A DNA stretch of 64,000 nt from Bacteroidia bacterium. GTDB taxonomy: Bacteria > Bacteroidota > Bacteroidia > Flavobacteriales > Flavobacteriaceae. Under the pieces are notes generated by a model. The model had not been told where the DNA came from, did no database searches, and was given only the letters and a program-made list of their open reading frames with translations. Shown piece after piece: positions 2,383-34,768 of the stretch. Where the stretch lies: NCBI GenBank assembly GCA_030432635.1, contig JAUIMB010000011.1:54124-118123 (forward strand), in the 5' to 3' direction. Positions within the stretch are counted from its first letter, which is position 1, and each line of letters starts with the position of its first letter. Position numbers and translations under genes: made by a program.

Positions 2383-2474
2383 CTTTTCCCTTAACGTGAA
2401 ATATTCGTCTTCTTCTTGCAGACAATCATTCTACATTGTTTTCCGACGACCATAAGTGGACCATAAGTGGTACT

Positions 2475-2858
2475 TTAGTAATATTCCTCGTAGTTTTCTG
2501 AGATCTTAACATAGGTCACACCATCTCCCACATCAACCAACTCTTCATCATCAACAAACTGATACGACTTGAATACGTCACCATCATCAAATACAGTAAC
2601 AGTTTGATTTTCAATAGTCCAAGTTATAGGGTTAGCAGATGACACGATCCCTCCAGAATGATGGGTCTTTGTCAAAATCGTTAATCCTGTGTTATCGTTT
2701 CCGAAAACTAATTTATAACTGTCCATCGACTCTTGACCTTGGACATTATATTCCCATACTCCCAACACATTGTACGACACATTAACTTGATCATCATCTT
2801 TAGAACAAGAAGTGATCAATACAGCAAGTACAATAATTAAGGTTTTGACGTATTTCAT
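2475..2858 (-). CDS. Hypothetical lipoprotein (lipocalin-like beta fold possible)
   Basis: Lipobox LITSC followed by SKDDD; LGVWE motif. Confidence 0.65.
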   Translation of the reverse strand: MKYVKTLIIVLAVLITSCSKDDDQVNVSYNVLGVWEYNVQGQESMDSYKLVFGNDNTGLTILTKTHHSGGIVSSANPITWTIENQTVTVFDDGDVFKSYQFVDDEELVDVGDGVTYVKISENYEEYY

Positions 2859-2924
2859 GATGTTTAAATTACAATCAAACTTAAGGCTTTGTTTAGAACA
2901 ACAATAAGCTAATCGACAAACACC

Positions 2925-4289
2925 TTAAATCTTAGCTGAATTCAATATTGCATCTTCGATTGTTGATGCCTTTTCAACAAACTCGAACCTTACTAATCCA
3001 TCTTGATCAATGCTGGTCAGTTTTACAACGTGAAGCGTATTCACCAATTCAGGATTCCAAAACGTTTTGACCTTAACATAATTTTCGGTAAACCCATGAA
3101 TAAAGCCTTCTTTATTTTCGCCTTCAAAAAGTACAGTTCTTGTTGTGCCCAATTGACTTTCATAAAATGCGCGACGCTTTTTAACCGATAAGCCTCGTAA
3201 CATTTTACTGCGTTTTGACCTTATATTTTTCGGTACTGGATTTGGCATTTCTGCGGCAAGCGTGTTATCACGCTCAGAATAGGTAAAGACATGTAAATAG
3301 GAAATGTCCAATTCGTTCAGAAAATTATAGGTCTCCAAAAAATGGGTTTCTGATTCACCTGGAAATCCAACAATAACATCAACGCCAATACAGGCATGAG
3401 GCATTTTGTCTTTGATTTGCTTAACGCGATCAACGTATAATTCTTTCATATAGCGACGACGCATTAACTTTAAAAGGTCATTGCTTCCACTTTGCAATGG
3501 AATGTGAAAATGCGGTACAAAAGATTGGCTTTGCGCCACAAAATCGATGGTCTCGTTTTTTAGCAAATTAGGTTCTATGGAAGAAATCCGTAAGCGTTCA
3601 ATACCATCGACCTTGTCTAAAGCCTGAACGAGCTCAAAAAAAGTATGCTCATGCTTTTTGTTTCCAAACTCTCCTTTGCCATAATCTCCTATATTCACAC
3701 CTGTCAGCACAATTTCCTTGATACCTTTTCCTGAAATTTCCTTGGCATTCTGAAGGACATTTTCTAAGGTATCGCTACGAGAAATCCCTCTTGCCAACGG
3801 AATCGTACAATAGGTACATTTATAATCACAGCCATCCTGAACCTTAAGGAATGCTCGAGTTCGATCACCTATTGAATAACTTCCAACATAAAAATCGGCT
3901 TCCTCAATTTCACAGGAATGCACTTCTCCCATATCATTTTTCGACAAGTCATTGAGGTAATCGGTAATCTTGAATTTCTCGGTTGCTCCTAACACCAAAT
4001 CCACACCTTCAACATCGGCCAATTCCTCAGGCTTTAACTGTGCATAACAACCAACAGCAGCAACAAAGGCTTCAGGGTTGATCTTTTGTGCTTGCTTGAC
4101 AATAGACTTGAAACGTTTGTCTGCATTTTCGGTGACCGAACACGTATTGACGACATAGATATCGGCTTTTTCACTGAAGTCCACACGATCAAAACCTTCC
4201 GAAGAAAACTGTCTCGCAATCGTTGAAGTTTCAGAAAAATTAAGCTTACAACCTAAGGTATAAAATGCGACTTTTTTATTCATATCCAA
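2925..4289 (-). CDS. mtaB: tRNA t6A37 methylthiotransferase (radical SAM)
   Basis: TLGCKLNFSET, VVNTCSVT and QDGCDYKCTYC (CxxxCxxC) motifs; C-terminal TRAM-like region. Confidence 0.93.
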   Translation of the reverse strand: MDMNKKVAFYTLGCKLNFSETSTIARQFSSEGFDRVDFSEKADIYVVNTCSVTENADKRFKSIVKQAQKINPEAFVAAVGCYAQLKPEELADVEGVDLVLGATEKFKITDYLNDLSKNDMGEVHSCEIEEADFYVGSYSIGDRTRAFLKVQDGCDYKCTYCTIPLARGISRSDTLENVLQNAKEISGKGIKEIVLTGVNIGDYGKGEFGNKKHEHTFFELVQALDKVDGIERLRISSIEPNLLKNETIDFVAQSQSFVPHFHIPLQSGSNDLLKLMRRRYMKELYVDRVKQIKDKMPHACIGVDVIVGFPGESETHFLETYNFLNELDISYLHVFTYSERDNTLAAEMPNPVPKNIRSKRSKMLRGLSVKKRRAFYESQLGTTRTVLFEGENKEGFIHGFTENYVKVKTFWNPELVNTLHVVKLTSIDQDGLVRFEFVEKASTIEDAILNSAKI

Positions 4290-23700: not shown

Positions 23701-23877
23701 AATAAAGATGATATAAAAGATTGCTATAACCGAAAAGACGACTGCCTACCTATTGTTGAACCCGAATTAAGTCGAGTGATGGCCAAACCTGCTCATGATT
23801 TCATGCTTGCCATGCTCAAGCATCCTTATGTAGAAAAAGATATTGATGAATTAGGCAAGTTATTATCTGAAAATTAA
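20710..23877 (+). CDS. Large polytopic membrane protein with C-terminal patatin-like phospholipase domain
   Basis: More than 10 hydrophobic segments in aa 1-600; then YGGGMKA (Gly-rich loop), SGASGG (GxSxG) and NDGGIYENSG (DGG). Confidence 0.75.
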   Translation: MKGTYIGKLLGSFKKFNISTSLFSTFLLLTIAMGAIGNIFDVKNHLTHPQFTEHISKSWFLETTDKCDLFLYKLFFIIDFIWAPLLLWILFKIIKWKTKTVLKGLKWVPVLFAILAIASLVFDYIENIKYLTTYQYPKDIAILKIACYASAVFIFTVVCLLNFKTKWFIILRNFVRSSWISLLILFVLGMALPKVPQFNSVIVDLYYRPIQFSFVFLALFAPLYAIVLSHYPSYISLSALNQISVRHWRMTDKFWLFGTIWYKERPHKGKEDVYKSYQSVVGYLRRSLGILFYSAIFFLLAFTADTNFDCGLKFAPFTMVLIIFLLLFLNYHRNKYATWEKTNKPFLNILSQQEAMDIYKSDVSSKQTPTPDASLFSINKPIKAYVLWVSISVALLIWLFISLYMTNKDDPYSWFNVILSLSCLVAQSISYVYYRTYRSAFKYVFFDPNQKAIFYAFGIVGYDADRYQEYKSLITEVFKNYDFKNGSKLLRFFSKLRFFEFSFGSLSNHIVFLKRIIYLGFLNAIVLLVLNYFNLYTVALNSTLIILSYFFLFYGIFVIIIKHIIYYSKSEEVFARNNKIKFKNSMLAFGLMLFVLIGLARFNTETKSELYVLKQIDTSDEVPLRTFVEHLEYGNRFYIGCYGGGMKANAWTMTVLDSLNKGFNIMEKATCLSGASGGTIGLTNYTTIYSENNTEAKRSEIVRKIATEDILSIDLTHVLGRDLVGHLFIPRTICDLKGTDRSTAAMKKYAKLTNFSPNHSFETLTYRGYWKTMYEKKKHKLPILIANSTNIEGRQGMAVSIKTKDEQSRILYTGADDILELDNSKTLSYFNATSTTNRFPLISPAATIKGKGQYNDGGIYENSGLLSAYKLYQAIESINDTISAKNVFVNIVNDKNLFIKAYIQDQYSALKNDSCFGDNINESSEMSAILKSVSATEMFPSYIKEKLEYLSDYDKCDITFISIYLPHRFDLDDIKTLYKPEIVNAMCVNELDRIITKNKDDIKDCYNRKDDCLPIVEPELSRVMAKPAHDFMLAMLKHPYVEKDIDELGKLLSEN

Positions 23878-25038
23878 TTTGGAAACACGTCCTTGACCTG
23901 CCGCAAAAGCAACAGAATCATTTAAAAACCTCAGCGTATAAAAAGCCTCATCACTCAAATGTGACCAAGAATTACCCGAATCGGAACTGTAATCTATTCC
24001 TTTAAAACCAACGGTGACCAATTTCGAAGCATTACCATTAGGAACATACTGTACACAACTTCGATAGCCTGGAGCTTGACCATCGGCTACAACATGCCAA
24101 GTCTTTCCTCCATCGTTTGTTCTTATTTTATTGGCATTGTTACCTTCTGGTTTCGTATAGTCGCCTCCAATCGCAAAACCATGTGTTTCATCATAAAAAT
24201 CTAAAGAATACATACCTGTGGTTTCCAAACCTTGAATGATCGGAGTTTCATAAACTTCCCAAGAATTCCCTTTATCTGGTGAGTACAATATGCGACTTGC
24301 CTTTCCTCCTGTGGCTATCCAAGTTTTATCGCCTACCATGGCAATATTGGAGTCACTAGCCGCAAAGGCTGCTTCACCATCTTTAGCCAATGGCAAATTC
24401 TCACAAGGTAATTTTGACCAGGTCTTGCCTCCATCACGAGTAATCACAATACTTAAACAACCATCGGTTGGGTCACCAATGGCCAAACCCTCTTGGTCAT
24501 TCCAGAATTCCATGGCATCATAAAAGGCCTTAGGGTGATTTTCAATATAGACAACCTTGTTTTCTTCCAAATCTAAATCCAGTTTATAAATCAGAGCAGG
24601 ACTTCCAATACTAATTCCATAGGCTCGACGCTTATTAACGGACAGGGCTCTAAAATTCGGAGTAATGGAATCAAAGGCTAAACTTACTGGCAACACTGCG
24701 TCAAAATCATCAGATTCACTGAGATTTAATTGGTCAAAACCTTTAAAAGTATTACTGGGCACTATAGCACCAAACCTACCATCTGATGTTACAAAAGCAG
24801 CACCTTGATACGCTTCTACAACTTCAATCGCTCGAACATTCAATGTAGAGTCTTTAATAATGGTTTCAATTTCCATATACGGAATTGATTGATTGATTAG
24901 TTTTTCATTAGATGAATGTGTTCTATTTCGGATTATAAACAACAAACCGAAAAGCAAAAAAGGTCCAATAAATATGAATAAGGTTTTCCTCATACTATCA
25001 TGATAAATAGCCATTTCATAAGAGCTGAAAAGTATCAT
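23863..25038 (-). CDS. Ycf48/BNR (Asp-box) repeat protein; likely start 24993
   Basis: Repeated T.DGGKTW / S.DKGNSW / S.DSGNSW Asp-boxes; GLAIGDP. Confidence 0.8.
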   Translation of the reverse strand: MILFSSYEMAIYHDSMRKTLFIFIGPFLLFGLLFIIRNRTHSSNEKLINQSIPYMEIETIIKDSTLNVRAIEVVEAYQGAAFVTSDGRFGAIVPSNTFKGFDQLNLSESDDFDAVLPVSLAFDSITPNFRALSVNKRRAYGISIGSPALIYKLDLDLEENKVVYIENHPKAFYDAMEFWNDQEGLAIGDPTDGCLSIVITRDGGKTWSKLPCENLPLAKDGEAAFAASDSNIAMVGDKTWIATGGKASRILYSPDKGNSWEVYETPIIQGLETTGMYSLDFYDETHGFAIGGDYTKPEGNNANKIRTNDGGKTWHVVADGQAPGYRSCVQYVPNGNASKLVTVGFKGIDYSSDSGNSWSHLSDEAFYTLRFLNDSVAFAAGQGRVSKLIFR

Positions 25039-25119: not shown

Positions 25120-27882
25120 CTAATTTTTAATAATTCGAAACGTTTTATTCTTATTGACTGTAATCAAATAAATACCATTCGCATAATCTGAAATATTTAT
25201 GTCTACTCTGCCAACTGACCTAAAATTGTTTTGAAAAAGCAGCTGACCTTGCACATTATAAACCAAAACAGAATCGATGTTACTAAATGAACTTTCAATA
25301 ACTAGAATACCGTTTGTTGGATTGGGATACAATTTCAAACTATCTCCAAACACATAATCTTCAACAGAAAGTGTTTCATTATTGATACCAAAAGTAGGAG
25401 CTTGTATAACAAAATCCCCTGTTCCATTAGGGTTTCTTGCATATCCCATATCAGTAACTTGAGCACCAAAAGTAATATCTTCTATAACTGTTCCATTAGT
25501 ATAAGATAAGATAGCGCTTTCACCACCTGCCGAGAATTTTACATCTGCATGTAAACCATCTTGGTCTAGATCTTCATCACACCATACTATCAAGTATTCG
25601 CCTGGCGCAATCGTAATTCCAGAAGGGAAAGGCCAAACCAATAAATCTGTAGGATCATCAGATAAATATAGGTTATCTAAGCTTAAGGTCTCATCACTAT
25701 TATTATACAATTCTAACCAATCTTCATATTCTCCATCTTGATCGGTTACAGTAGTATCATTTGAAGCCATTAATTCATTAATTACTAAATCTCCTGGTGT
25801 TATGGTTGGATATGAATTATCAACGGATTCATTATTTTCTGCAAAAGTTGGTTCTTGAATTACAAAATCTCCTGTTCCATTGGGATTTCTTGCATAACCC
25901 ATATCATCTGTTTGCGAGCCAAAGGTTATATTTTCTATAATAGTTCCATCTGCATAAGATAAAATCGCACTTTCACCACCTGAAGAAAATTTCAAATCGG
26001 CATGTAACCCTGTTTGGTCTAAATCTTTATCACACCAAACTATTAAATATTCGTCTGGCGCAATTGTAATTCCTGCAGGAAACTGCCAGGCTAATAAATC
26101 TGTAGGATCATCGGATAAATACAAATTATCTAAACTTATGGTTTCAGAAGAGTTATTATATAATTCTAACCAATCATCATACTCACCATCTTGATCGGCA
26201 ACTGTTGTGACATTAGATGCCATTAATTCATTTATAACCAAATCACCAATAGGAATAGTTAAATAAGTCGCGTTTATGGTATAAAACTCATGCTCTGCTC
26301 GTGCTGGAGAAAAAGCACCTATATTGTTATTTTCAGCATATATATAGTATTGTGTATATTCTTCAGTAATTGCTAACTCTACACCATATACACCATCATT
26401 TGCGCTTCCATCATTATGATTACCATCATCATACATAAGAGTTTTGGTAAAAGCTTCATGCTGATCGTTTCTGTAACCTAAAAATACGGTATCAGAATTA
26501 GTATTGATGACGTTACTAGTGATAGTTATGGTTGTATCTATCTCTGGACTTGAATTAGATTCTGACACATTACTTATTTCAGGTTGAGTTACTGTAAAAT
26601 CTGATAAAGCAGAAAGATAATTCCCTCTAGCATTCATTAAATTAGTTAAGCCTGAAGCTGTATTCATACCTAGACTATAATCTGTATTTATGTTTCCAAT
26701 GAATTGAGCGTATGAATAAAATTTATTAACATCTGCTTGAACCGCAGCATCAATGATACTTTGAAAGTCATTTGCTAAAGTCAGATAGTTAGAGTTTGTA
26801 ATCTGCTCAGTTAGAATTGTCTTGTAGTGTGCTAAATACATTTTCTTATACCTAGGAACTGCTAAAAGTTTAGACATTAATGGAAAATTATTATCTGTAT
26901 CATGTAACAAGTGATCCATTTGTGCTTTTTGAGTCGTGGTGTTTAAATTTCCTCCTCCTGGTCCTCCTCCGCTTGCGCCAGTCATACTGAAAGTTCCAAA
27001 CGACATATTTAAATCCCAAACAACTGGACTAAAACGTCCATTATTACCTTTATACAAATAATAATTTTGTTTAAATTCTCCGATATAACTATCCAGATTA
27101 ACTAAAACATTATCAAAAGCTAACATCCATAAAGCGCGATCTACGTCTAATACAGTTTCAATATTTGCGATGTCAGTATTTAAAATATTTGTTAGCTCAA
27201 TCAAATCGTCCCAATGTGCATCTGCAACAGTAGGATCTGTTTCATCATCAGATTTAATTTCATAGGCATCTTCATAGCTTGCGCTATTTGTTCCTAAATA
27301 GGCAAGATTCGGATAATCATTTGATCCAGGTCCTGCTCCATCTGGAGGACTACAACTAAAAAAAGCATTATCATTTGATCCAAAATGGTTATTGACAAAC
27401 TTTTTAGAAATAGATTCTACATTAGTATATAGCCCTATTAATGTACCATTAACATACACATTAGCATAATTAGCTAATGGCGCATGCATGTAGTTTCTAG
27501 CAATGTCATAAGCAACAGTCTCTCTAACAAATGAAGGGTCGAATATGACATTTGCTAATTTCAAATCTGTTGTACCTTGATAGTTTTGATCAACGTAGGT
27601 ATCTAACTCTATATGAAATGGATTTTTAGTCTGATTGGGATTGTAAGAGCTGTTTCCCTTATACTTCACACCTACTTGATTAAAAACGGTTCCGTTAATG
27701 GTTACAGAAGTTGCTTCGGTGTAATTGTTGTCTCCAGCTTTTTCTGCATCTAATAGTGCATCCCAGTTACTTTCTGCAAATACAATTTCTATGGTTTGAA
27801 TCGTATTAGTATCATACAACTCTTGTGCATAAATACTACTAGCAAAGAGTAATACTAATAAAAATGTAATTGTTTTTTTCAT
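25120..27882 (-). CDS. CotH-family kinase with two lamin-tail domains and a T9SS type A sorting domain
   Basis: GVKYKGNSSY, NLDSY, NYYLY and WDLNMSFG CotH motifs; two VINELMASN...DWLELYN LTDs; C-terminal LYPNPTNG...KTFRIIKN. Confidence 0.88.
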   Translation of the reverse strand: MKKTITFLLVLLFASSIYAQELYDTNTIQTIEIVFAESNWDALLDAEKAGDNNYTEATSVTINGTVFNQVGVKYKGNSSYNPNQTKNPFHIELDTYVDQNYQGTTDLKLANVIFDPSFVRETVAYDIARNYMHAPLANYANVYVNGTLIGLYTNVESISKKFVNNHFGSNDNAFFSCSPPDGAGPGSNDYPNLAYLGTNSASYEDAYEIKSDDETDPTVADAHWDDLIELTNILNTDIANIETVLDVDRALWMLAFDNVLVNLDSYIGEFKQNYYLYKGNNGRFSPVVWDLNMSFGTFSMTGASGGGPGGGNLNTTTQKAQMDHLLHDTDNNFPLMSKLLAVPRYKKMYLAHYKTILTEQITNSNYLTLANDFQSIIDAAVQADVNKFYSYAQFIGNINTDYSLGMNTASGLTNLMNARGNYLSALSDFTVTQPEISNVSESNSSPEIDTTITITSNVINTNSDTVFLGYRNDQHEAFTKTLMYDDGNHNDGSANDGVYGVELAITEEYTQYYIYAENNNIGAFSPARAEHEFYTINATYLTIPIGDLVINELMASNVTTVADQDGEYDDWLELYNNSSETISLDNLYLSDDPTDLLAWQFPAGITIAPDEYLIVWCDKDLDQTGLHADLKFSSGGESAILSYADGTIIENITFGSQTDDMGYARNPNGTGDFVIQEPTFAENNESVDNSYPTITPGDLVINELMASNDTTVTDQDGEYEDWLELYNNSDETLSLDNLYLSDDPTDLLVWPFPSGITIAPGEYLIVWCDEDLDQDGLHADVKFSAGGESAILSYTNGTVIEDITFGAQVTDMGYARNPNGTGDFVIQAPTFGINNETLSVEDYVFGDSLKLYPNPTNGILVIESSFSNIDSVLVYNVQGQLLFQNNFRSVGRVDINISDYANGIYLITVNKNKTFRIIKN
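25390..26270 (-). repeat. Tandem duplication of the lamin-tail domain (453-bp period)
   Basis: cctgttccatt occurs at 25418 and 25871; the two protein repeats are near-identical. Confidence 0.85.
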
Positions 27883-27889
27883 TTGTGTG

Positions 27890-28567
27890 TTAATTTAAAT
27901 GTTCTTTTTGTAACGTTTTTACATCTGCAATTAATTGTTGTACAGACGTTTTGTTTAATCCGTTATAAATTCCTCTAATGCGTCTTTGTTTATCAATAAG
28001 GACGAAATTTTCAGTATGGAGAAAGTCGTCATCTGTTTTATTTAATCCTAAATCTTCTTCAGCAAAATAGGCTTCACGACCTAAGTCATAAATTTGCTTT
28101 CTGTCACCAGTTACCAAATGCCATTTTTCATTAATAACACCTTTAGTTTCTGCATAACGTTTTAATGTTGAGACAGAATCTGTTTCTGGAGTTACTGAAT
28201 GTGATAATAGCAAAATGTCATCATCATCTATAAATTCGTCTTGTAACACCATCATGTTTGCTGTCATTTTCGGGCAAATACCAGGACAGGTTGTAAAGAA
28301 AAAATCAGCAATATAGATTTTATCTTTAAAGGTTTTCTCGGTGACTTCCTCACCTAATTGATTTACTAAGCTAAACTTTGGGATTTTGTGAATGATATCT
28401 GCTTCTTCTCCATTTGGATCTAACCAATGAGGTGTAAATGTTGCCTCCTTATAAAATGGCAGTGCTGAAACTCTACTCGTTTTTTCAGAAGTTGAAGACT
28501 CTTTACATCCTGCAAAGCATAACATCAAAAAAGAAACCATTATATATTTAATATTGCACATTCTCAT
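27890..28567 (-). CDS. Sco1/SenC-family copper chaperone lipoprotein (ORF track start 28594)
   Basis: FFTTCPGICP (CxxxC), conserved His in FLHTENF, lipobox FAGC. Confidence 0.9.
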   Translation of the reverse strand: MRMCNIKYIMVSFLMLCFAGCKESSTSEKTSRVSALPFYKEATFTPHWLDPNGEEADIIHKIPKFSLVNQLGEEVTEKTFKDKIYIADFFFTTCPGICPKMTANMMVLQDEFIDDDDILLLSHSVTPETDSVSTLKRYAETKGVINEKWHLVTGDRKQIYDLGREAYFAEEDLGLNKTDDDFLHTENFVLIDKQRRIRGIYNGLNKTSVQQLIADVKTLQKEHLN

Positions 28568-29150
28568 CTTCCAATTGATAACATAAATTCGCACGTTTTA
28601 ATCCGAAAATCCGTCCGTTTTTAGCCTCGTAATTATTATAAATTTTTCCATTTTCACGCCATGCCTTTTGCATGCCTTCTTCTTTTCCGTTCACAATTGT
28701 CATTTCTTTAAACTTAGCTCCAGATTTGTACCATTGTTTCTGTATTCCGTTTACAATGCCATTAGTATAGTTGGCCTCAGAGCGTAAATTGCCGTTTTTC
28801 CACCATGATTTTGCTTTTCCATGTTGTAATCCGTTAGCATAATAAGCCTCAAAGCTTAAGCTTCCATCTGGGAACCATTTTTGATATATTCCATGACGCT
28901 TACCATTAACAAATTGAATAGATTCCACTTTAAAATTTTCACTATAGTATCTAACTGAAGTACCATTAAAGGGCTGATTTTGATAATACATCAATCCTAA
29001 ATTAGGTTTCAACTCTAATTCAACCTTATTAATTACCATCTCATTTTCAGTAGTATTAACAACTTCAGTATAAGCCATAAATTTCTGTTCTTCTTTTTGA
29101 CAAGAAGACATAACTAACAGACTTATGATAAAAGTTGTTTTACTGAATAT
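28548..29150 (-). CDS. MORN-variant repeat (YwqK-like) lipoprotein; first in-frame ATG at 29111, a complete signal needs a start at 29150
   Basis: Repeats NGKRHG.YQKW..DG, NGLQHG..KSW.KNG, NGKEEG.QKAW.ENG; upstream in-frame IFSKTTFIISLLVMSSC. Confidence 0.8.
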   Translation of the reverse strand: MFSKTTFIISLLVMSSCQKEEQKFMAYTEVVNTTENEMVINKVELELKPNLGLMYYQNQPFNGTSVRYYSENFKVESIQFVNGKRHGIYQKWFPDGSLSFEAYYANGLQHGKAKSWWKNGNLRSEANYTNGIVNGIQKQWYKSGAKFKEMTIVNGKEEGMQKAWRENGKIYNNYEAKNGRIFGLKRANLCYQLEDENVQY

Positions 29151-30237
29151 TGCTTGGAGTGCCTTGATAATCGCCTGGGAATAAAATATAAAACTGATTT
29201 AAGTATAGATCATTTTGAATATGATAATGGTATTCACCATCAGGGTTATGAGGTGTTGGGCCAAAATGACCTCCTGAAGCGTCTAAATCTGTTGGATATT
29301 CATTTGAAGGATAATCTCTACGTCCATAAAGAAAGAATCCATCTGCGATGATTCCAATTAATTCTTGATCGTCGTCTGACCAAGCTTTAGTTTCTAAATG
29401 ATAATGATAACTTTGCGGTCCTGTATGAGCAGCTGTGTAATCTAAAGAACCAACTGCGCCATCCAACGGAATATTTGGACCTTCTTCATCATTATAAATC
29501 ATAGAGCCAGACACTGCAATTCCTATAGGTCCTAATCCTGTCGACGTAGAAGTTGCAGCCAATTGTGGATTTGCTGATACTGTTAATGTATAACTACCAT
29601 TAAAATCATCAATATTACCTGGAGCCATCATTTCATAACTTGTTACAGTTGGCTCAACAAATAATGGATGATTTTCTGCTGCAGCTGGAGTAACCAAAGT
29701 ATTTCCCATTGGATCGATTGCTGTACGCTCTGTTGTGTTAGACCAGTATGGAGACGTATGATTTGGTAATCCGTTACTTTCGATAACCACATTCGAACCA
29801 CTTAACATAATGTCTGTATTATCGGCATCAAACTCTGCAAAAGCAAGATGTAATGAAGTTGTTGTTGAAGCCGTTGAAAAACTAAAAGATGCTGAACTGC
29901 TTCCACCATTTCCATCAGAAGCAACAACAGTTCCGGAATAATTTGTTGAGGGCGTCAAAGCCGTTACATCTAACGTTAAAACCGATAAAGAGGAAGCTAA
30001 TTCAGAGCCTTGTAACGTCACTGTATAAGTCACTGTATCTCCATCAGCATCTGTAGCTTGCGTCCAATTAATACTAGCTGTGGTCTCAGTAATTGAAGTC
30101 ACACTTGCTGTAAAACCAGAAGGTGCTTGATTTGTAGTTTGGCCATTATCCTCATTTCCAGAATCATCACTACTACAAGCAAAAAAAGCTATAGCTACTA
30201 ATAAAAATGTCGTTAGAATTTTTAAATAATTTTTCAT
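29140..30237 (-). CDS. YHYH-domain lipoprotein with an N-terminal FN3-like domain
   Basis: Lipobox FFAC-SSDD; FN3-like segment; HTGPQSYHYHL, ADGFFLYG and GEYHYH motifs. Confidence 0.88.
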   Translation of the reverse strand: MKNYLKILTTFLLVAIAFFACSSDDSGNEDNGQTTNQAPSGFTASVTSITETTASINWTQATDADGDTVTYTVTLQGSELASSLSVLTLDVTALTPSTNYSGTVVASDGNGGSSSASFSFSTASTTTSLHLAFAEFDADNTDIMLSGSNVVIESNGLPNHTSPYWSNTTERTAIDPMGNTLVTPAAAENHPLFVEPTVTSYEMMAPGNIDDFNGSYTLTVSANPQLAATSTSTGLGPIGIAVSGSMIYNDEEGPNIPLDGAVGSLDYTAAHTGPQSYHYHLETKAWSDDDQELIGIIADGFFLYGRRDYPSNEYPTDLDASGGHFGPTPHNPDGEYHYHIQNDLYLNQFYILFPGDYQGTPSNIQ

Positions 30238-30270
30238 TGATTTATGTTTGATTTGTTAATCTTATGACTT

Positions 30271-30298
30271 TAGATGTCCTTTTAAAAAATAACTTGCG
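30271..30298 (-). promoter_or_regulatory. Putative ECF promoter CGCAAGTT-N14-CATCTA (YHYH-MORN-Sco-CotH operon)
   Basis: One of four copies with identical spacing; lies just downstream of an intrinsic terminator. Confidence 0.75.
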
Positions 30299-30317
30299 CT
30301 TAGTAATACTTTATTTC

Positions 30318-30348
30318 AAAAAAAAGCTTCGCAATTTCTCACGAAGCT
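30318..30348 (-). terminator. Intrinsic terminator after EF-hand gene 1
   Basis: AGCTTCG-loop-CGAAGCT-T8 on the minus strand. Confidence 0.8.
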
Positions 30349-30384
30349 CTTTCAACAAAAAACTATTAACCAATCAAATAATTT

Positions 30385-30918
30385 TTATTTATCTTTTTTT
30401 CTACGTTTAGACATTCCTTTTTTATTATAAAAAATTTGCAATTCTTTTAAATCAAGTTCACTGTCTTGATTTGTATCAATTTCATGAAAATTTTTAATTA
30501 AGTCTCGCTTATCCTTTGCTGCAACTTCTAATTCATTTAAAGTACCATCTTTATTATCATCAACTTCTTTTAAAATTTTTTCAGCTGATATTTTCTTTGG
30601 TTTTTTTCTATCGTTTAGTGATGCTTTTAATTCTTCTAAGTCTATTAGCTCATCGCTATTGGTGTCTATTGCGTCAAAATCTTGAGCAATTTTACCTCTT
30701 TCATCGTTTGAAGCTTCTTCTTTATCGATAACACCATCACCATTTGTATCTAGCTTTGAAAATATTTCGGTAGCATCTGGCTTTTTATTTCTTTGTTGAT
30801 CTCCGCCTTGTCCTCTTCCTACTCTTTGTCCACCACCACGATATCCCTGAGCAGACAAACTAATAGAAAACAGTAGTACAACTACAGTAAAAGTCAATTT
30901 CATGTTATTATTTCTCAT
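30385..30918 (-). CDS. Exported EF-hand protein (4 EF-hands)
   Basis: Signal peptide; loops DTNGDGVIDKEE, DTNSDELIDLEE, DDNKDGTLNELE, DTNQDSELDLKE. Confidence 0.9.
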   Translation of the reverse strand: MRNNNMKLTFTVVVLLFSISLSAQGYRGGGQRVGRGQGGDQQRNKKPDATEIFSKLDTNGDGVIDKEEASNDERGKIAQDFDAIDTNSDELIDLEELKASLNDRKKPKKISAEKILKEVDDNKDGTLNELEVAAKDKRDLIKNFHEIDTNQDSELDLKELQIFYNKKGMSKRRKKDK

Positions 30919-30954
30919 ATTATTGTTTTAATTATTCTTTCTTTTTTTTATTAA

Positions 30955-30982
30955 TAGGAAACTTAAGACCATTTTACTTGCT
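30955..30982 (-). promoter_or_regulatory. Degenerate ECF promoter (AGCAAGTA-N14-TTCCTA)
   Basis: CAAGT and CTA at the same register as in the four exact copies; upstream of EF-hand gene 1. Confidence 0.4.
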
Positions 30983-31084
30983 AATCGTAATTTATTTGAT
31001 ATCAACGATGGTTTTTAATATTTCTGAATATTCTCATGATATTTTTAGATTTAAGTGGCTTAGATAATTTCTAACTCTCAAACT

Positions 31085-31113
31085 AAAAAAGCTTCGCAAT
31101 CGCTCACGAAGCT
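31085..31113 (-). terminator. Intrinsic terminator after EF-hand gene 2
   Basis: AGCTTCG-loop-CGAAGCT followed by a T-tract on the minus strand. Confidence 0.8.
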
Positions 31114-31186
31114 TTTCCTACTAACAATAATTAACCAATCAAAATCACTAATTCTTGGACTAACTCAAATTCTTGTTTTCTTAGGT

Positions 31187-31474
31187 CTACTCATTACGTT
31201 CTTTTCTTTTCGGCTTTGGTGCTTTTTTTAATTCTTCTTCAGAAATAAAACCATCTTCATCTGTATCTATTTTAGTAAATTCATCTTTTAACGGTCCTTT
31301 AACTTCATCTTTAGAAAGCTTACCATCTTCATTGGCATCCATTTCCTTTAAAAGTTGTTCAAATGTTGGTGGTTTTTTTCGTTCCTTACCTTGAGGTTGT
31401 CCAAATGAACTATTTGACATAAACAATGCTATTCCAAATACGATAACTACGGTTTTTAATGTGCTACTTTTCAT
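31187..31474 (-). CDS. Exported EF-hand protein (2 EF-hands); ORF track start 31594 is probably too long
   Basis: Signal MKSSTLKTVVIVFGIALF; loops DANEDGKLSKDE and DTDEDGFISEEE; the promoter at 31502-31529 lies inside the extended ORF. Confidence 0.88.
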   Translation of the reverse strand: MKSSTLKTVVIVFGIALFMSNSSFGQPQGKERKKPPTFEQLLKEMDANEDGKLSKDEVKGPLKDEFTKIDTDEDGFISEEELKKAPKPKRKERNE

Positions 31475-31501
31475 AATTAAATTTTTATTATTACATAGGT
31501 T

Positions 31502-31529
31502 TAGATGTAGAAGGCGCTGATAACTTGTG
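31502..31529 (-). promoter_or_regulatory. Putative ECF promoter CACAAGTT-N14-CATCTA
   Basis: Exact motif and spacing, 28 nt upstream of ATG 31474. Confidence 0.75.
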
Positions 31530-31601
31530 CTTTGTTTTGTTAAATAAAACACAAAAAAAAGACCTTCAACAAAACTGAAAGCCTTTATAATCAATTAACA
31601 A

Positions 31602-32105
31602 TTAATCACGTCTAGGTGGATGCCTACGACCATCTTTACCTTGAGGTGGTGGAGGTCTGTTTCCTTGATCTCCCTGACGCAATGCATCCATAAGTATAGT
31701 TTTAAATTTTTCTTTTTGCTTATCATTTGCAATGCCTTGTATCGCTCTAAAATGATAAAATATTTCTTTTTCTTTTTCTTTTTCTTTTTCACAAATTAAT
31801 GATGTCAAAGAATCTATAACGGATTCATTTACAGACTTATCAAACAACGTAGGAAACAAATCATCTTTTAAACTTCTAATCTCATCTGATAAACGCATCA
31901 TAGTTTTATGGTGTTTTTCACTACTAGCATTAAACTGTTCCAACTGCGCTGTATCAAATCCAAGTTCTTTCACGATAAAATCTCTATTTCTATGTGGTTC
32001 TCTTATCTTATTATCGTTTCCGCCTTTCAGGTAGTTGACTAGAAAAAACCCATTGACTATAATAAGAAAAATAAGCAAAACGTATAAAATGGTATTCCTC
32101 TTCAT
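31602..32105 (-). CDS. Spy/CpxP-like (periplasmic heavy-metal-sensor type) protein
   Basis: N-terminal TM, KELGFDTAQLEQF and final QKEKFK helices, His residues (KHHK, FYHF). Confidence 0.7.
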   Translation of the reverse strand: MKRNTILYVLLIFLIIVNGFFLVNYLKGGNDNKIREPHRNRDFIVKELGFDTAQLEQFNASSEKHHKTMMRLSDEIRSLKDDLFPTLFDKSVNESVIDSLTSLICEKEKEKEKEIFYHFRAIQGIANDKQKEKFKTILMDALRQGDQGNRPPPPQGKDGRRHPPRRD

Positions 32106-32108
32106 GAT

Positions 32109-32420
32109 TTAATTAAATATAGTGGTTTCAGTAGTTGTAGATAAGCCATAAGATTCAGCAAATTGGTTTAAATTCTCATTATAAGTTGATTCTTTAATCT
32201 TGGTAAAAGCAAATACATTTAAAATGATAACGCAAGCTAATGTCGCCAATTGCAATTGAGGCGTAAACCAAGACCAAAGTTTTTGTTTTTCTTCCTTTTT
32301 AACAAATAAACGATCTAAGGTTTTATCTTTAAAAAAAGGAGATACTTTCACTTCTTCGATATGATTAACACTATCAAAAACTGCATCTATCTTATCTTGT
32401 ATGTTCTTATTTGTTTTCAT
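32109..32420 (-). CDS. Probable anti-sigma factor (single TM)
   Basis: VKVSPFFKDKTL motif and TM LQLATLACVIILNVFAF; directly after the ECF sigma gene. Confidence 0.65.
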   Translation of the reverse strand: MKTNKNIQDKIDAVFDSVNHIEEVKVSPFFKDKTLDRLFVKKEEKQKLWSWFTPQLQLATLACVIILNVFAFTKIKESTYNENLNQFAESYGLSTTTETTIFN

Positions 32421-32431
32421 TGTTATTTATT

Positions 32432-32459
32432 TAGATGTTTTTTCTTGAAAAAACTTGTA
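32432..32459 (-). promoter_or_regulatory. Putative ECF promoter TACAAGTT-N14-CATCTA
   Basis: Fills the 39-bp gap between the sigma stop codon and the anti-sigma ATG. Confidence 0.75.
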
Positions 32460-33038
32460 CTACTGTTCATTTTTATAAAAATTTCCTAAAGCCTTTTGTA
32501 AATTTTTCTTTGCCCTAAACATTAATGATTCAACCGATGACAAACTCTTTTCGGTGATATCACTAACTTCTTGATAGCTCTTTCCATCAACTTTGTGTAA
32601 TGTAAATACAAGTCGTTGCGCTTCAGGCAAACCATTGATTGCAAAAAAAAGAGTGTCGCTTTTTTCTTTATTTTCTAGAATAATTCCAGGATGGTTCATT
32701 TCGGTGAAATAATTAGTTTTATCAATTTCAAACCCATCTCCAGTTAATGATTGTAAAAAGGCAAAACGCTTTTTAGTGTTACGCTTACGAATAAATTCCA
32801 AACATTTATTAGTCGCAATTCTATATATCCATGTAGAGAGTTTAGATTGGCCCTTAAACTTTGAAATGGAATTAAAGACTTCAACAAAAACCTCTTGTGC
32901 TATATCTTCGGCATCTTCTTTGTTTGGCACGAAAGACAAGCAGGTTCCATATACTTTATGCTGAAAATCATCAAGCAGTTTTGCATAAGCAATTCTACTC
33001 TTGTTTCTCAACTCTTTTATAAATTCGGCTTCCGTCAA
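32460..33038 (-). CDS. ECF sigma-70 factor (TTG start)
   Basis: DAEDIAQEVFVEVF, STWIYRIATNKCL and LPEAQRLVF...SYQEVS...SVESLMFRAKKNL. Confidence 0.92.
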   Translation of the reverse strand: MTEAEFIKELRNKSRIAYAKLLDDFQHKVYGTCLSFVPNKEDAEDIAQEVFVEVFNSISKFKGQSKLSTWIYRIATNKCLEFIRKRNTKKRFAFLQSLTGDGFEIDKTNYFTEMNHPGIILENKEKSDTLFFAINGLPEAQRLVFTLHKVDGKSYQEVSDITEKSLSSVESLMFRAKKNLQKALGNFYKNEQ

Positions 33039-33069
33039 AAATCTAGTTAAATTTTACGATGTACAAATT

Positions 33070-33097
33070 TAGATGCGCTTCAGAATAAAAACTTGCG
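33070..33097 (-). promoter_or_regulatory. Putative autoregulatory ECF promoter CGCAAGTT-N14-CATCTA
   Basis: Exact motif 32 nt upstream of the sigma start. Confidence 0.78.
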
Positions 33098-33156
33098 TTT
33101 TTAATAATCCAAAAAAACAACAGTAGAAATACACACTTAGTAATGCTATGCTAATT

Positions 33157-33759
33157 TTAAATAAATTTGGTGAAACATCTCTTACCTAATAAGACTATAG
33201 GAATCAGCAATAGACTCCACAAATAACTCTTATTAAAACCTTTTGACCGTCTTTCAACCATCGCATCATTTTCAAGGTCAACTGACATTTCATAAGCATT
33301 GTTTTGATTTAAAATCACCTTGCTTGTGGTCCCATTTAAAAAGAGCGAGAAAATCGTTTGATGTTGTCCATTTTCAGAAAACGCCTTGATACTGACGTCC
33401 ATAGTATCAAATTCATTGGGTAGTGTACTTATCACAAACTTCAAATCGGTTTGGTGGCTACCCAATTTTATTCCGCCTTCCAAAAGTTTTATGTCTCTAC
33501 CATTGATACTGAGTTCAAAATTTTCCTTGATATAATTTACGGCTAATTTCTTATATTCTTTATCAAACATGGCTTCTAAATCCTTTTGAGGATATTGCTT
33601 TTTAAGCGCCTTATGTAAGCCGTCTTGGCTTAAATTGATGGTTAGCACGCTCATATGCTCCTTCACTTCTAGATAGTAGAGAGCCGATAAAGGGTTATGA
33701 GCTTCCACTATGTTCAATGAACCAATGAAAACCAAAATCAGGACGAAGAGTTGTCTCAT
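33157..33759 (-). CDS. Exported protein with N-terminal His and a C-terminal TM anchor (DUF6702-like); ORF track start 33795
   Basis: Signal MRQLFV...VEA then mature HNPLS; C-terminal hydrophobic YLWSLLLIPIVLL. Confidence 0.55.
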   Translation of the reverse strand: MRQLFVLILVFIGSLNIVEAHNPLSALYYLEVKEHMSVLTINLSQDGLHKALKKQYPQKDLEAMFDKEYKKLAVNYIKENFELSINGRDIKLLEGGIKLGSHQTDLKFVISTLPNEFDTMDVSIKAFSENGQHQTIFSLFLNGTTSKVILNQNNAYEMSVDLENDAMVERRSKGFNKSYLWSLLLIPIVLLGKRCFTKFI

Positions 33760-33760
33760 A

Positions 33761-34768
33761 TCATTGAAAGGCAAAACTATTGACGGCTGCCACACCTTTT
33801 AAGCATTTTGGAACATTAGGTGCTTCGGTAGTGCTTGCCACATAGTGGTAGATACCATCGGGAAATTCTGATGTGATTGCTTCAATACCTCCACATTCAT
33901 CCAAACCTTCTGGTTCATTTTCGTAGGCATAAATTGGAAATCCATCTTTCGCAAAGCCTATGAGTTTACGACCTGAAACCTGATTGACCAACGTACAGGA
34001 TACATCGTCAATAGTATTGGATTCCAATACCTTATTCATAACTTCCGACACGAAATGCAGATGATAATATCCTGCTGGATCATGATGACCACCACAAGGG
34101 TCAATTGCTGGAATATTTCCTACACCAAGCACTGGTCCGTTCACTACTGAAGGTGGATCTCCATTAATAGGCACACCATCTGTAGAAAGACCAATAAGCT
34201 CAACAGTATCTATATTGTTATTGCTAGTAGCCAATTTTGGCACTGCAGGTATCAAGAAAGTCAATTGTATATTATTATCAGGAACGGCTTCCAAACAAAA
34301 AGAAAAACCGCCTGGATTTGGTGGCCCAGACAAGTCATCGATATATATTTCTCCAGTATTTCCAATAATATCATAACCATCAGCTTCCATAGCATTAAAT
34401 AAAGTGGCCTTTAAAACCTGAAAACCAGGATTCGTCGCACCATCATATATACCCAATCCACCAATATCATTTATGGTTTCAGGGCAAAAAGGACCGCTTT
34501 CCAATGGGTTACTTGAAAAAACCAATCGATAGCACTCGCCTTCCGTTCCATCCTCAAAATCACAATCCACTTTATTATAACTCACTAAAGATGTAGCATT
34601 GAAAAATGCCTCCTGAATCACCTCTTCATTGGTATCAGGAATGTTAGCATTTCCATCGTCATCATTTTCACAAGCTGAAACAACAAGCATTAAAGCCAGT
34701 AATATGACACCATATTTACTGAGAGAGCTTTGAGTCTTCGTGTATATGTTCTTCCAATTCATTTTCAT
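33761..34768 (-). CDS. Second YHYH-domain lipoprotein
   Basis: Lipobox VSAC-ENDDD; DGVPING, DPCGGHHDPAGYYHLH, GFAKDGFPIY, LDECGG and GIYHY motifs. Confidence 0.82.
   Translation of the reverse strand: MKMNWKNIYTKTQSSLSKYGVILLALMLVVSACENDDDGNANIPDTNEEVIQEAFFNATSLVSYNKVDCDFEDGTEGECYRLVFSSNPLESGPFCPETINDIGGLGIYDGATNPGFQVLKATLFNAMEADGYDIIGNTGEIYIDDLSGPPNPGGFSFCLEAVPDNNIQLTFLIPAVPKLATSNNNIDTVELIGLSTDGVPINGDPPSVVNGPVLGVGNIPAIDPCGGHHDPAGYYHLHFVSEVMNKVLESNTIDDVSCTLVNQVSGRKLIGFAKDGFPIYAYENEPEGLDECGGIEAITSEFPDGIYHYVASTTEAPNVPKCLKGVAAVNSFAFQ

Follow-up and report, generated by a model that had tools for sequence, protein, structure and literature searches.

The stretch of DNA considered here (the window) is 64,000 nucleotides (nt) of contig JAUIMB010000011.1 (positions 54,124 to 118,123 of the forward strand) from the assembly GCA_030432635.1 of a Bacteroidia bacterium belonging to the Flavobacteriaceae, an assembly of 3.51 Mb in 40 contigs with 36.7% G+C. 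On the minus strand of the window lies a gene for a sigma factor of the ECF (extracytoplasmic function) type, followed by the genes of two membrane proteins and of a series of secreted and envelope proteins. Repeated between these genes is the motif CAAGTT-N14-CATCTA, which is very likely to be the promoter that this sigma factor recognises. The genes, hairpins and motif copies of the locus are listed below in the direction of reading, the exact copies being named P1 to P4 and all copies being scored in bits by a weight matrix.

33067..33098 (core 33070-33095), minus strand: P1, before the sigma gene, 34.4 bits, 31 nt to the TTG
32460..33038, minus strand: ECF sigma factor of 192 amino acids (aa), TTG start, domains Sigma70_r2 and Sigma70_r4_2
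32429..32460 (core 32432-32457), minus strand: P2, before the +1 gene, 29.6 bits, 11 nt to the ATG
32109..32420, minus strand: +1 gene, 103-aa single-pass membrane protein, presumed anti-sigma factor, no family match
31602..32105, minus strand: +2 gene, 167-aa membrane-anchored periplasmic protein, CnrX/Spy-like (PF13801, E=0.022)
31558..31586, minus strand: terminator-like hairpin and U8 after the +2 gene
31499..31530 (core 31502-31527), minus strand: P3, before EF-hand 2, 21.5 bits, 27 nt to the ATG at 31474
31187..31474, minus strand: EF-hand 2, 95-aa secreted protein (Pfam)
about 31087..31116, minus strand: terminator hairpin (13 bp) and U-run after EF-hand 2, z = -2.96 for the stretch
30955..30982, minus strand: degenerate copy before EF-hand 1, -19.5 bits, not counted as a promoter
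30385..30918, minus strand: EF-hand 1, 177-aa secreted protein (Pfam)
about 30320..30353, minus strand: terminator hairpin (15 bp) and U8 after EF-hand 1, z = -4.71
30268..30299 (core 30271-30296), minus strand: P4, before the YHYH operon, 35.0 bits, 33 nt to the ATG
29140-30237, minus strand: YHYH-fn3 protein (Pfam)
28548-29111, minus strand: MORN protein (Pfam)
27890-28594, minus strand: SCO1/SenC protein (Pfam)
25120-27882, minus strand: CotH-LTD protein with a type IX secretion system (T9SS) sorting tail (Pfam)
23863-25038, minus strand: BNR protein (Pfam)

A preliminary description of this region had reported four exact copies of the motif, intergenic and oriented with the genes behind them. 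All four are present as it gave them, standing 31, 11, 27 and 33 nt ahead of the starts at 33038 (TTG), 32420, 31474 and 30237, and the two bases 5' of CAAGTT are CG, TA, CA and CG, also as it had written them. P2 occupies the 39 nt that separate the sigma stop from the +1 gene. When the window is shuffled, 0.02 matches are expected, against the 4 observed. For the whole genome about 0.8 strict matches are expected, as computed from base composition, so that the signal is not the count itself, it is the occurrence of four copies on one strand within 2.8 kb. The genome-wide scan that the preliminary description had called for was run, and the only strict matches in the whole assembly, on both strands, are the four copies at the sigma locus, the result being the same with a spacer of 13-15 nt. 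With the weight matrix the four sites score 21.5-35 bits, the runner-up in the window scores 6.1 and the runner-up in the genome 13.8, and apart from these four and the 13.8-bit site nothing above 12 bits was found genome-wide. The regulon is local, the genome having no further convincing site.

The 13.8-bit site, the only other genomic site above 12 bits, lies on the minus strand of contig 9 (95320-95351) with CGCAACC as its -35 and GCATCTATAA as its -10 element, it is intergenic and stands 14 nt before the gene of a 153-aa lipoprotein without a Pfam match. It is possible that this is a weak extra member of the regulon. Directly upstream of the sigma gene the window carries a YHYH-DUF6702 pair (33157-34768), and with the weight matrix no motif was found before this pair.

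That four copies in so short a region are alike by chance or by recent local duplication, with no regulatory role, is extremely unlikely. Local duplication did occur here, since the two EF-hand genes are followed by terminators and 3' regions that are clearly paralogous. However, the spacers and flanks vary among the four copies while the boxes are identical, only about 0.02 copies are expected per window, and the same boxes recur in 79 of 80 orthologous loci in different genera.

These loci were drawn from more than 540 relatives of the sigma factor (one genome per species), of which the best 80, with 72-87% identity, were used for the conservation counts; they come from Psychroserpens, Algibacter, Winogradskyella, Lacinutrix, Olleya, Mariniflexile, Hyunsoonleella, Tamlana, Bizionia and other Flavobacteriaceae. 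Where the strict motif is found, in the 79 loci, it is present in one to five copies each, all on the strand of the sigma gene and none on the opposite one, and a weight matrix built from these sites and run over the loci scores 299 sites at 10 bits or above on the strand of the sigma gene, against 0 on the opposite strand. Bases that were not imposed by the search are conserved as well, C occupying -1 in 250 of the 268 sites, a purine (R) standing at 0 in every one and AA following the -10 box in about 255, together with T at +7 to +9 and G or A before CATCTA, and the ten central positions of the spacer hold almost no information. The full consensus from these sites is CRCAAGTTTT-N10-RCATCTAAA. 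The sites stand at distances that are fixed for each class of gene, and the genes that they precede, with the median distance to the start codon, are as follows.

Before the +1 gene: 78 loci, median 11 nt
Before the sigma gene: 44 loci, median 30 nt
Before the small EF-hand gene: 54 loci, median 28 nt
Before the larger EF-hand gene: 12 loci, median 20 nt
Before the YHYH gene: at least 37 loci, median 33 nt
Before the CotH gene: 12 loci, median 36 nt
Before the gene of a VTC-domain protein: 4 loci, median 71 nt
Before the Cthe_2159 gene: 2 loci, median 81 nt

In single loci the motif also stands ahead of genes for Lcl_C and BNR proteins, and in other genera CotH, VTC, Cthe_2159 and BNR genes have their own copy of it.

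The invariant site is P2, the one before the +1 gene, and the site upstream of the sigma gene is less conserved. When the position of P2 is anchored on the sigma stop alone and the next 52 nt are taken, the strict motif is found in 68 of 76 loci, and in 71 of 76 if one mismatch is allowed. In the region ahead of the sigma gene the strict motif is found in 44 of the 80 loci and in about 6 more at one mismatch, with nothing recognisable there in about 25. The preliminary description had the sigma factor regulating its own gene through the motif, a proposal that agrees with P1 in the window and with the 44 loci that have the strict site, but which does not extend to the 25 or so that have none.

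Whether the motif follows the sigma factor from genome to genome was assessed in 201 genomes of the family, sampled at one per genus, with E <= 1e-45 as the cut-off for an ortholog. The ortholog is found in 26 of them, all at E <= 1e-73, and nothing else reaches 1e-45. In 22 of these 26 genomes there is a strict copy on the strand of the sigma gene and within 5 kb of it, and of the remaining four the three that were checked each have a copy with one mismatch immediately behind the sigma stop. Genomes that lack the ortholog, 175 in all, have scattered single matches at about the level of a reversed-pattern control, with no cluster among the matches listed, which are all but two. In the genomes of five further relatives most of the strict copies lie within the sigma locus.

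It might be argued that the motif is indeed an ECF promoter, but one read by a different ECF sigma factor encoded elsewhere, with the locus being its target and not its source, and a first look at the genome does give about two dozen candidate matches to the sigma-70 family. Against this, the genome has a single gene that matches this sigma factor at E <= 1e-45, the motif clusters (among the matches listed) only in genomes that have the ortholog and always adjoining it, and the copy abutting the sigma stop persists in homologues with 42-51% identity. A different ECF sigma factor is therefore a very unlikely reader of the motif.

The next homologues of the sigma factor in a phylum-wide sample have only 42-52% identity. 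In 29 such distant loci a relaxed pattern (CAAGTT allowing up to one change, a spacer of 14 nt and C[G/A]TC[T/A/C]A) has 20 occurrences on the strand of the sigma gene against a single one on the other, spread over 16 loci. Many of these sites have the canonical CGTC at -10 and several lie directly after the sigma stop, a P2-type site in that place being kept from the Flavobacteriaceae as far as other Bacteroidota whose homologues have about 45% identity. As distant homologues have CGTC, CATCTA is the form that the usual ECF -10 element takes in this clade, and from the sequences compared CAAGTT at -35 seems to be the mark of a group found across the Bacteroidota. One distant group (L094-L096, L099, L101, L103 and L107; 43-49% identity) has the motif about 660 nt or more ahead of the sigma gene, with the motif at about 650-840 and the sigma gene at about 1495 in locus coordinates, which would imply that in this group that promoter serves another gene lying before the sigma gene.

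Classical ECF promoters have AAC-N16-CGT-type boxes, and the spacing of the motif is the same. The motif is asymmetric (AAG-N16-CATCTA), is oriented with the genes it precedes and stands 11-35 nt before their start codons. ECF promoters likewise have two unlike boxes, 16-17 nt apart, and are close to and co-oriented with the gene that they serve. Taking together its uniqueness in the genome, its conservation at the locus, its co-occurrence with the sigma factor and this geometry, CRCAAGTTTT-N10-RCATCTAAA is very likely the promoter read by polymerase carrying the sigma factor from 32460-33038, and the recognition sequence proposed in the preliminary description is well supported.

Alternatively, some DNA-binding regulator other than a sigma factor could use the motif as its operator, and transcription of the genes would then come from ordinary sigma-A promoters. 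A perfect Bacteroidetes sigma-A -7 box (TAnnTTTG), TAAATTTG at 33064-33071, overlaps the -10 half of P1 and would suit such an arrangement. However, the motif has neither a palindrome nor a direct repeat, being asymmetric, its sites are co-oriented with the downstream genes (299 against 0) at promoter-like distances of 11-35 nt from the start codons, the sigma gene is the sole regulator gene conserved in the locus, and distant relatives have the canonical ECF CGTC at -10, all of which makes an operator very unlikely. As for the -7 box, an overlapping TAnnTTTG is found in only 2 of the 44 orthologous sigma-upstream sites, so that the overlap at P1 is probably coincidence, and the reading of the motif as a sigma-A promoter was rejected.

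The protein encoded at 32460-33038 matches PF04542 and PF08281, that is only sigma regions 2 and 4, which places it among the ECF (group 4) sigma factors. It scores 102.7 bits against TIGR02937, for which the cut-off is 42.9, and the solved structures closest to it are E. coli RpoE, AlgU and SigW. The sigma, +1 and +2 genes occur together in all 80 orthologous loci. TTG is the start codon of the sigma gene in the window (33036-33038) and in 72 of 76 orthologous loci, with an in-frame ATG near the start in only 3, and this conserved weak start may keep the sigma factor below its anti-sigma factor.

The homologues of the +1 protein are named only 'hypothetical protein' (among the 120 of 224 that were listed). 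A weak structural model of it, with a predicted local distance difference test score (pLDDT) of 67.7, has two short N-terminal helices followed by one long helix, and a fold search with this weak model gave no informative match. In a triad of the CnrYXH type this place would be taken by a short (class II) anti-sigma factor, like CnrY, that binds the sigma factor. By analogy with known systems it probably acts as the anti-sigma factor, holding the sigma factor at the membrane. For the +2 protein, profile searches give Spy at E=8e-4 and CnrX at a marginal E=1.3 in the PDB, and PF13801 at E=0.022 in Pfam. The AlphaFold (AF2) model of this protein (pLDDT 74.6) has CnrX for all of its top 13 Foldseek matches, with a target TM-score of 0.74-0.82 and E from 4.5e-3, so that in its modelled form the +2 protein resembles the four-helix hooked hairpin of CnrX. 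Among the +2 orthologues H65 is the sole invariant histidine, an HHxxM stretch being common but not fixed.

If the promoter is read in this manner, its -35 element would be AAG in place of the usual AAC and its -10 element, 16 nt further on, CATCTA in place of CGTCTA, with transcription likely starting about 6-8 nt after CATCTA. Transcription from P1 would give the sigma factor, a positive autoregulation, and that from P2 would give the +1 and +2 proteins, as far as the terminator, thereby providing negative feedback. P3 would serve the small secreted EF-hand protein, and P4 the YHYH, MORN and SCO1 proteins, the CotH kinase with its T9SS sorting tail and probably the BNR protein. The +1 protein probably holds the sigma factor at the membrane, in analogy with CnrH, CnrY and CnrX, until the +2 protein senses a signal in the periplasm (a metal or another cation, most likely), upon which the sigma factor would be released. 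The products of the predicted regulon are secreted or belong to the envelope, including EF-hand calcium binders, YHYH, a protein like the SCO1 copper chaperones and a T9SS-exported CotH-type kinase. Together with a CnrX-like sensor they would point to an envelope response to a cation or metal. The YHYH family is uncharacterised, with a preprint predicting a three-histidine site of the zinc type in one member (bioRxiv 10.64898/2026.10.18.759936).

Several observations sit less easily with a cation-sensing ECF system of this kind. About a third of the loci have no site upstream of the sigma gene, so autoregulation of the sigma factor is not universal. Nearly all described ECF promoters have C in the -35 core (AAC), where the motif has G (AAG). 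With a transcription start at the usual distance, the leader between P2 and the ATG would be only about 4-5 nt long. The +1 protein has no match in Pfam or NCBIfam and no detectable similarity to any anti-sigma family. Lastly, with a single invariant histidine in the +2 protein the metal site of CnrX may not be kept, and for the same reason the ligand need not be nickel or cobalt.

In one of the closest known systems, CnrYXH of Cupriavidus metallidurans (nickel and cobalt sensing, ECF20/ECF291) binding of metal to CnrX frees the sigma factor CnrH from CnrY, and the sigma factor then drives its own regulators and the adjacent effectors (PMC6851896). As in that system, the locus here combines an ECF sigma factor with a short protein of one membrane pass and a four-helix periplasmic protein anchored in the membrane, and here too the sigma factor is predicted to drive regulators and adjacent effector genes. 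It differs in gene order (sigma, +1, +2 as opposed to Y-X-H), in the sequence similarity of the +2 protein to CnrX, which is marginal (E=1.3), and in that the CnrX metal ligands His42, His46, Glu63 and His119, to which a Met is added, are not evidently kept in the +2 orthologues, as judged from the conservation of residues. The effectors differ as well, being EF-hand, YHYH, SCO1 and CotH proteins where Cnr has a resistance-nodulation-division (RND) efflux pump, as does the phylum.

In the classification of ECF sigma factors 2.0 the groups ECF281 and ECF290, both derived from ECF20, are given a heavy-metal resistance protein (PF13801) at +2 (PMC7826278). The locus shares a PF13801-type protein at that position with them, a likeness that is weak here (E=0.022), and placement in these groups goes by the ECF Hub models. 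At +1, these groups are given a zinc-finger or RskA-like anti-sigma factor, whereas the protein here has no recognisable anti-sigma domain. It is possible that the ECF Hub already lists the motif for this subgroup.

A comparison with E. coli sigma-E is also apt, RpoE being the closest solved relative of this sigma factor. The sigma-E consensus is GGAACTT-N16-TCAAA, with the same layout of boxes as the motif, but the -35 core here is AAG and not AAC and the -10 element here is CATCTAAA. E. coli is described as having two sigma-E-dependent promoters, one before rpoE and one for the anti-sigma operon (rseA P3) (PMC8595263), and the locus here is similar in having a predicted sigma-dependent promoter before the sigma gene and a separate one for the presumed anti-sigma operon. 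In contrast to E. coli, where the sigma gene contains the rseA promoter, P2 is intergenic, neither partner protein is related to RseA or RseB, the regulon consists of four local units against about a hundred genes, and P1 is dispensable in a third of the relatives. SigW of Bacillus subtilis is likewise among the best family and structure matches of this sigma factor. The autoregulated sigma-W promoter is TGAAAC-N16-CGTATA, in which the AAC-like core is spaced from the CGT-like core as it is here, but the sequences of the boxes differ, the sigma-W regulon is large, and SigW is freed by proteolysis of its anti-sigma factor RsiW.

What is constant in the orthologous loci may be a sigma-dependent promoter for the anti-sigma factor and sensor pair as opposed to autoregulation, and when the weak TTG start is considered with it one could tentatively, and with some doubt, envisage a feedback-dominated CnrX-type cation sensor that is widespread in the phylum and controls an unstudied envelope module. 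If so, that module would consist of secreted EF-hand proteins, putative YHYH metalloproteins, SCO1 and a T9SS-exported CotH kinase, joined by VTC and Cthe_2159 proteins in other genera, and would possibly be a system of calcium or metal homeostasis or of surface phosphorylation.

The regulatory principle is a textbook one, so that the gain is a well-supported annotation and not a new mechanism. Its value lies mainly in linking uncharacterised envelope protein families of marine Flavobacteriaceae to one predicted switch, namely YHYH, bacterial EF-hand proteins, a T9SS-secreted CotH kinase and MORN, with VTC and Cthe_2159 in relatives. The pairing of AAG at -35 with CAT at -10 is a natural variant that could inform the specificity code of ECF sigma factors or serve as an orthogonal part for Bacteroidota. 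Literature searches with the two hexamers gave only unrelated primer-type matches, those with the combination of genes gave none, and no published start-site map was found for a species with this sigma factor.

Within the locus, the hairpins and U-runs after the +2, EF-hand 2 and EF-hand 1 genes imply that the units downstream need promoters of their own, a point made in the preliminary description and borne out by the hairpins at the ends of EF-hand 2 and EF-hand 1. Its placing of the EF-hand 2 start at the ATG at 31474 agrees with the orthologues, most of which are 90-101 aa long and start 27-28 nt after the motif. The genes behind P4 (23863..30237, minus strand), YHYH-fn3, MORN, SCO1/SenC, CotH-LTD and BNR, are presumed to form one operon, having short gaps or overlaps with no motif or terminator between them.

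The fifth, degenerate copy that the preliminary description had placed before EF-hand 1 is present in the sequence as described, but a role as promoter is not supported by its score of -19.5 bits. It has one mismatch in the -35 box and three in the -10 box, with no AA after the latter. Among EF-hand 1 orthologues 18 of 27 have a strong site 17-30 nt upstream, and in the closest relative (L002) EF-hand 1 lies directly behind EF-hand 2 with no site between. Given that score and a closest relative without the site, 30955-30982 was rejected as a functional site, and it is probably a decayed or very weak one. The 3' regions of the two EF-hand genes and their terminator hairpins (31085-31150 and 30316-30375) are near-identical (GATTGGTTAAT...GCTTCGTGAG..ATTGCGAAGCTTTTTT), which suggests a local duplication that took in both an EF-hand gene and its terminator.

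Two strict matches outside the sigma locus were seen in genomes of relatives. In a Mariniflexile genome the motif (L081:988-1013) is far from the sigma gene, 25 nt before a YHYH-DUF6702 pair (L081:1039-2031 and 2015-2671), families that are also found directly upstream of the sigma gene in the window (33157-34768). In a Hyunsoonleella genome a well-formed copy (L082:1013-1038) stands 26 nt before a sulfatase and aldo/keto reductase pair (L082:1065-2375 and 2441-3454). This copy may have joined the regulon in that lineage only, or it may be a chance match, the reversed-pattern control giving 0-1 per strand per genome. A further short sequence, ATAAC(A), is conserved (in loci L002-L022 among others) about 8-13 nt past the -10 box at the EF-hand 2 and YHYH sites and at some of the +1-gene sites (30258-30263 and 32423-32427 in the window), and it could be a marker of the start-site region or an element of the leader.

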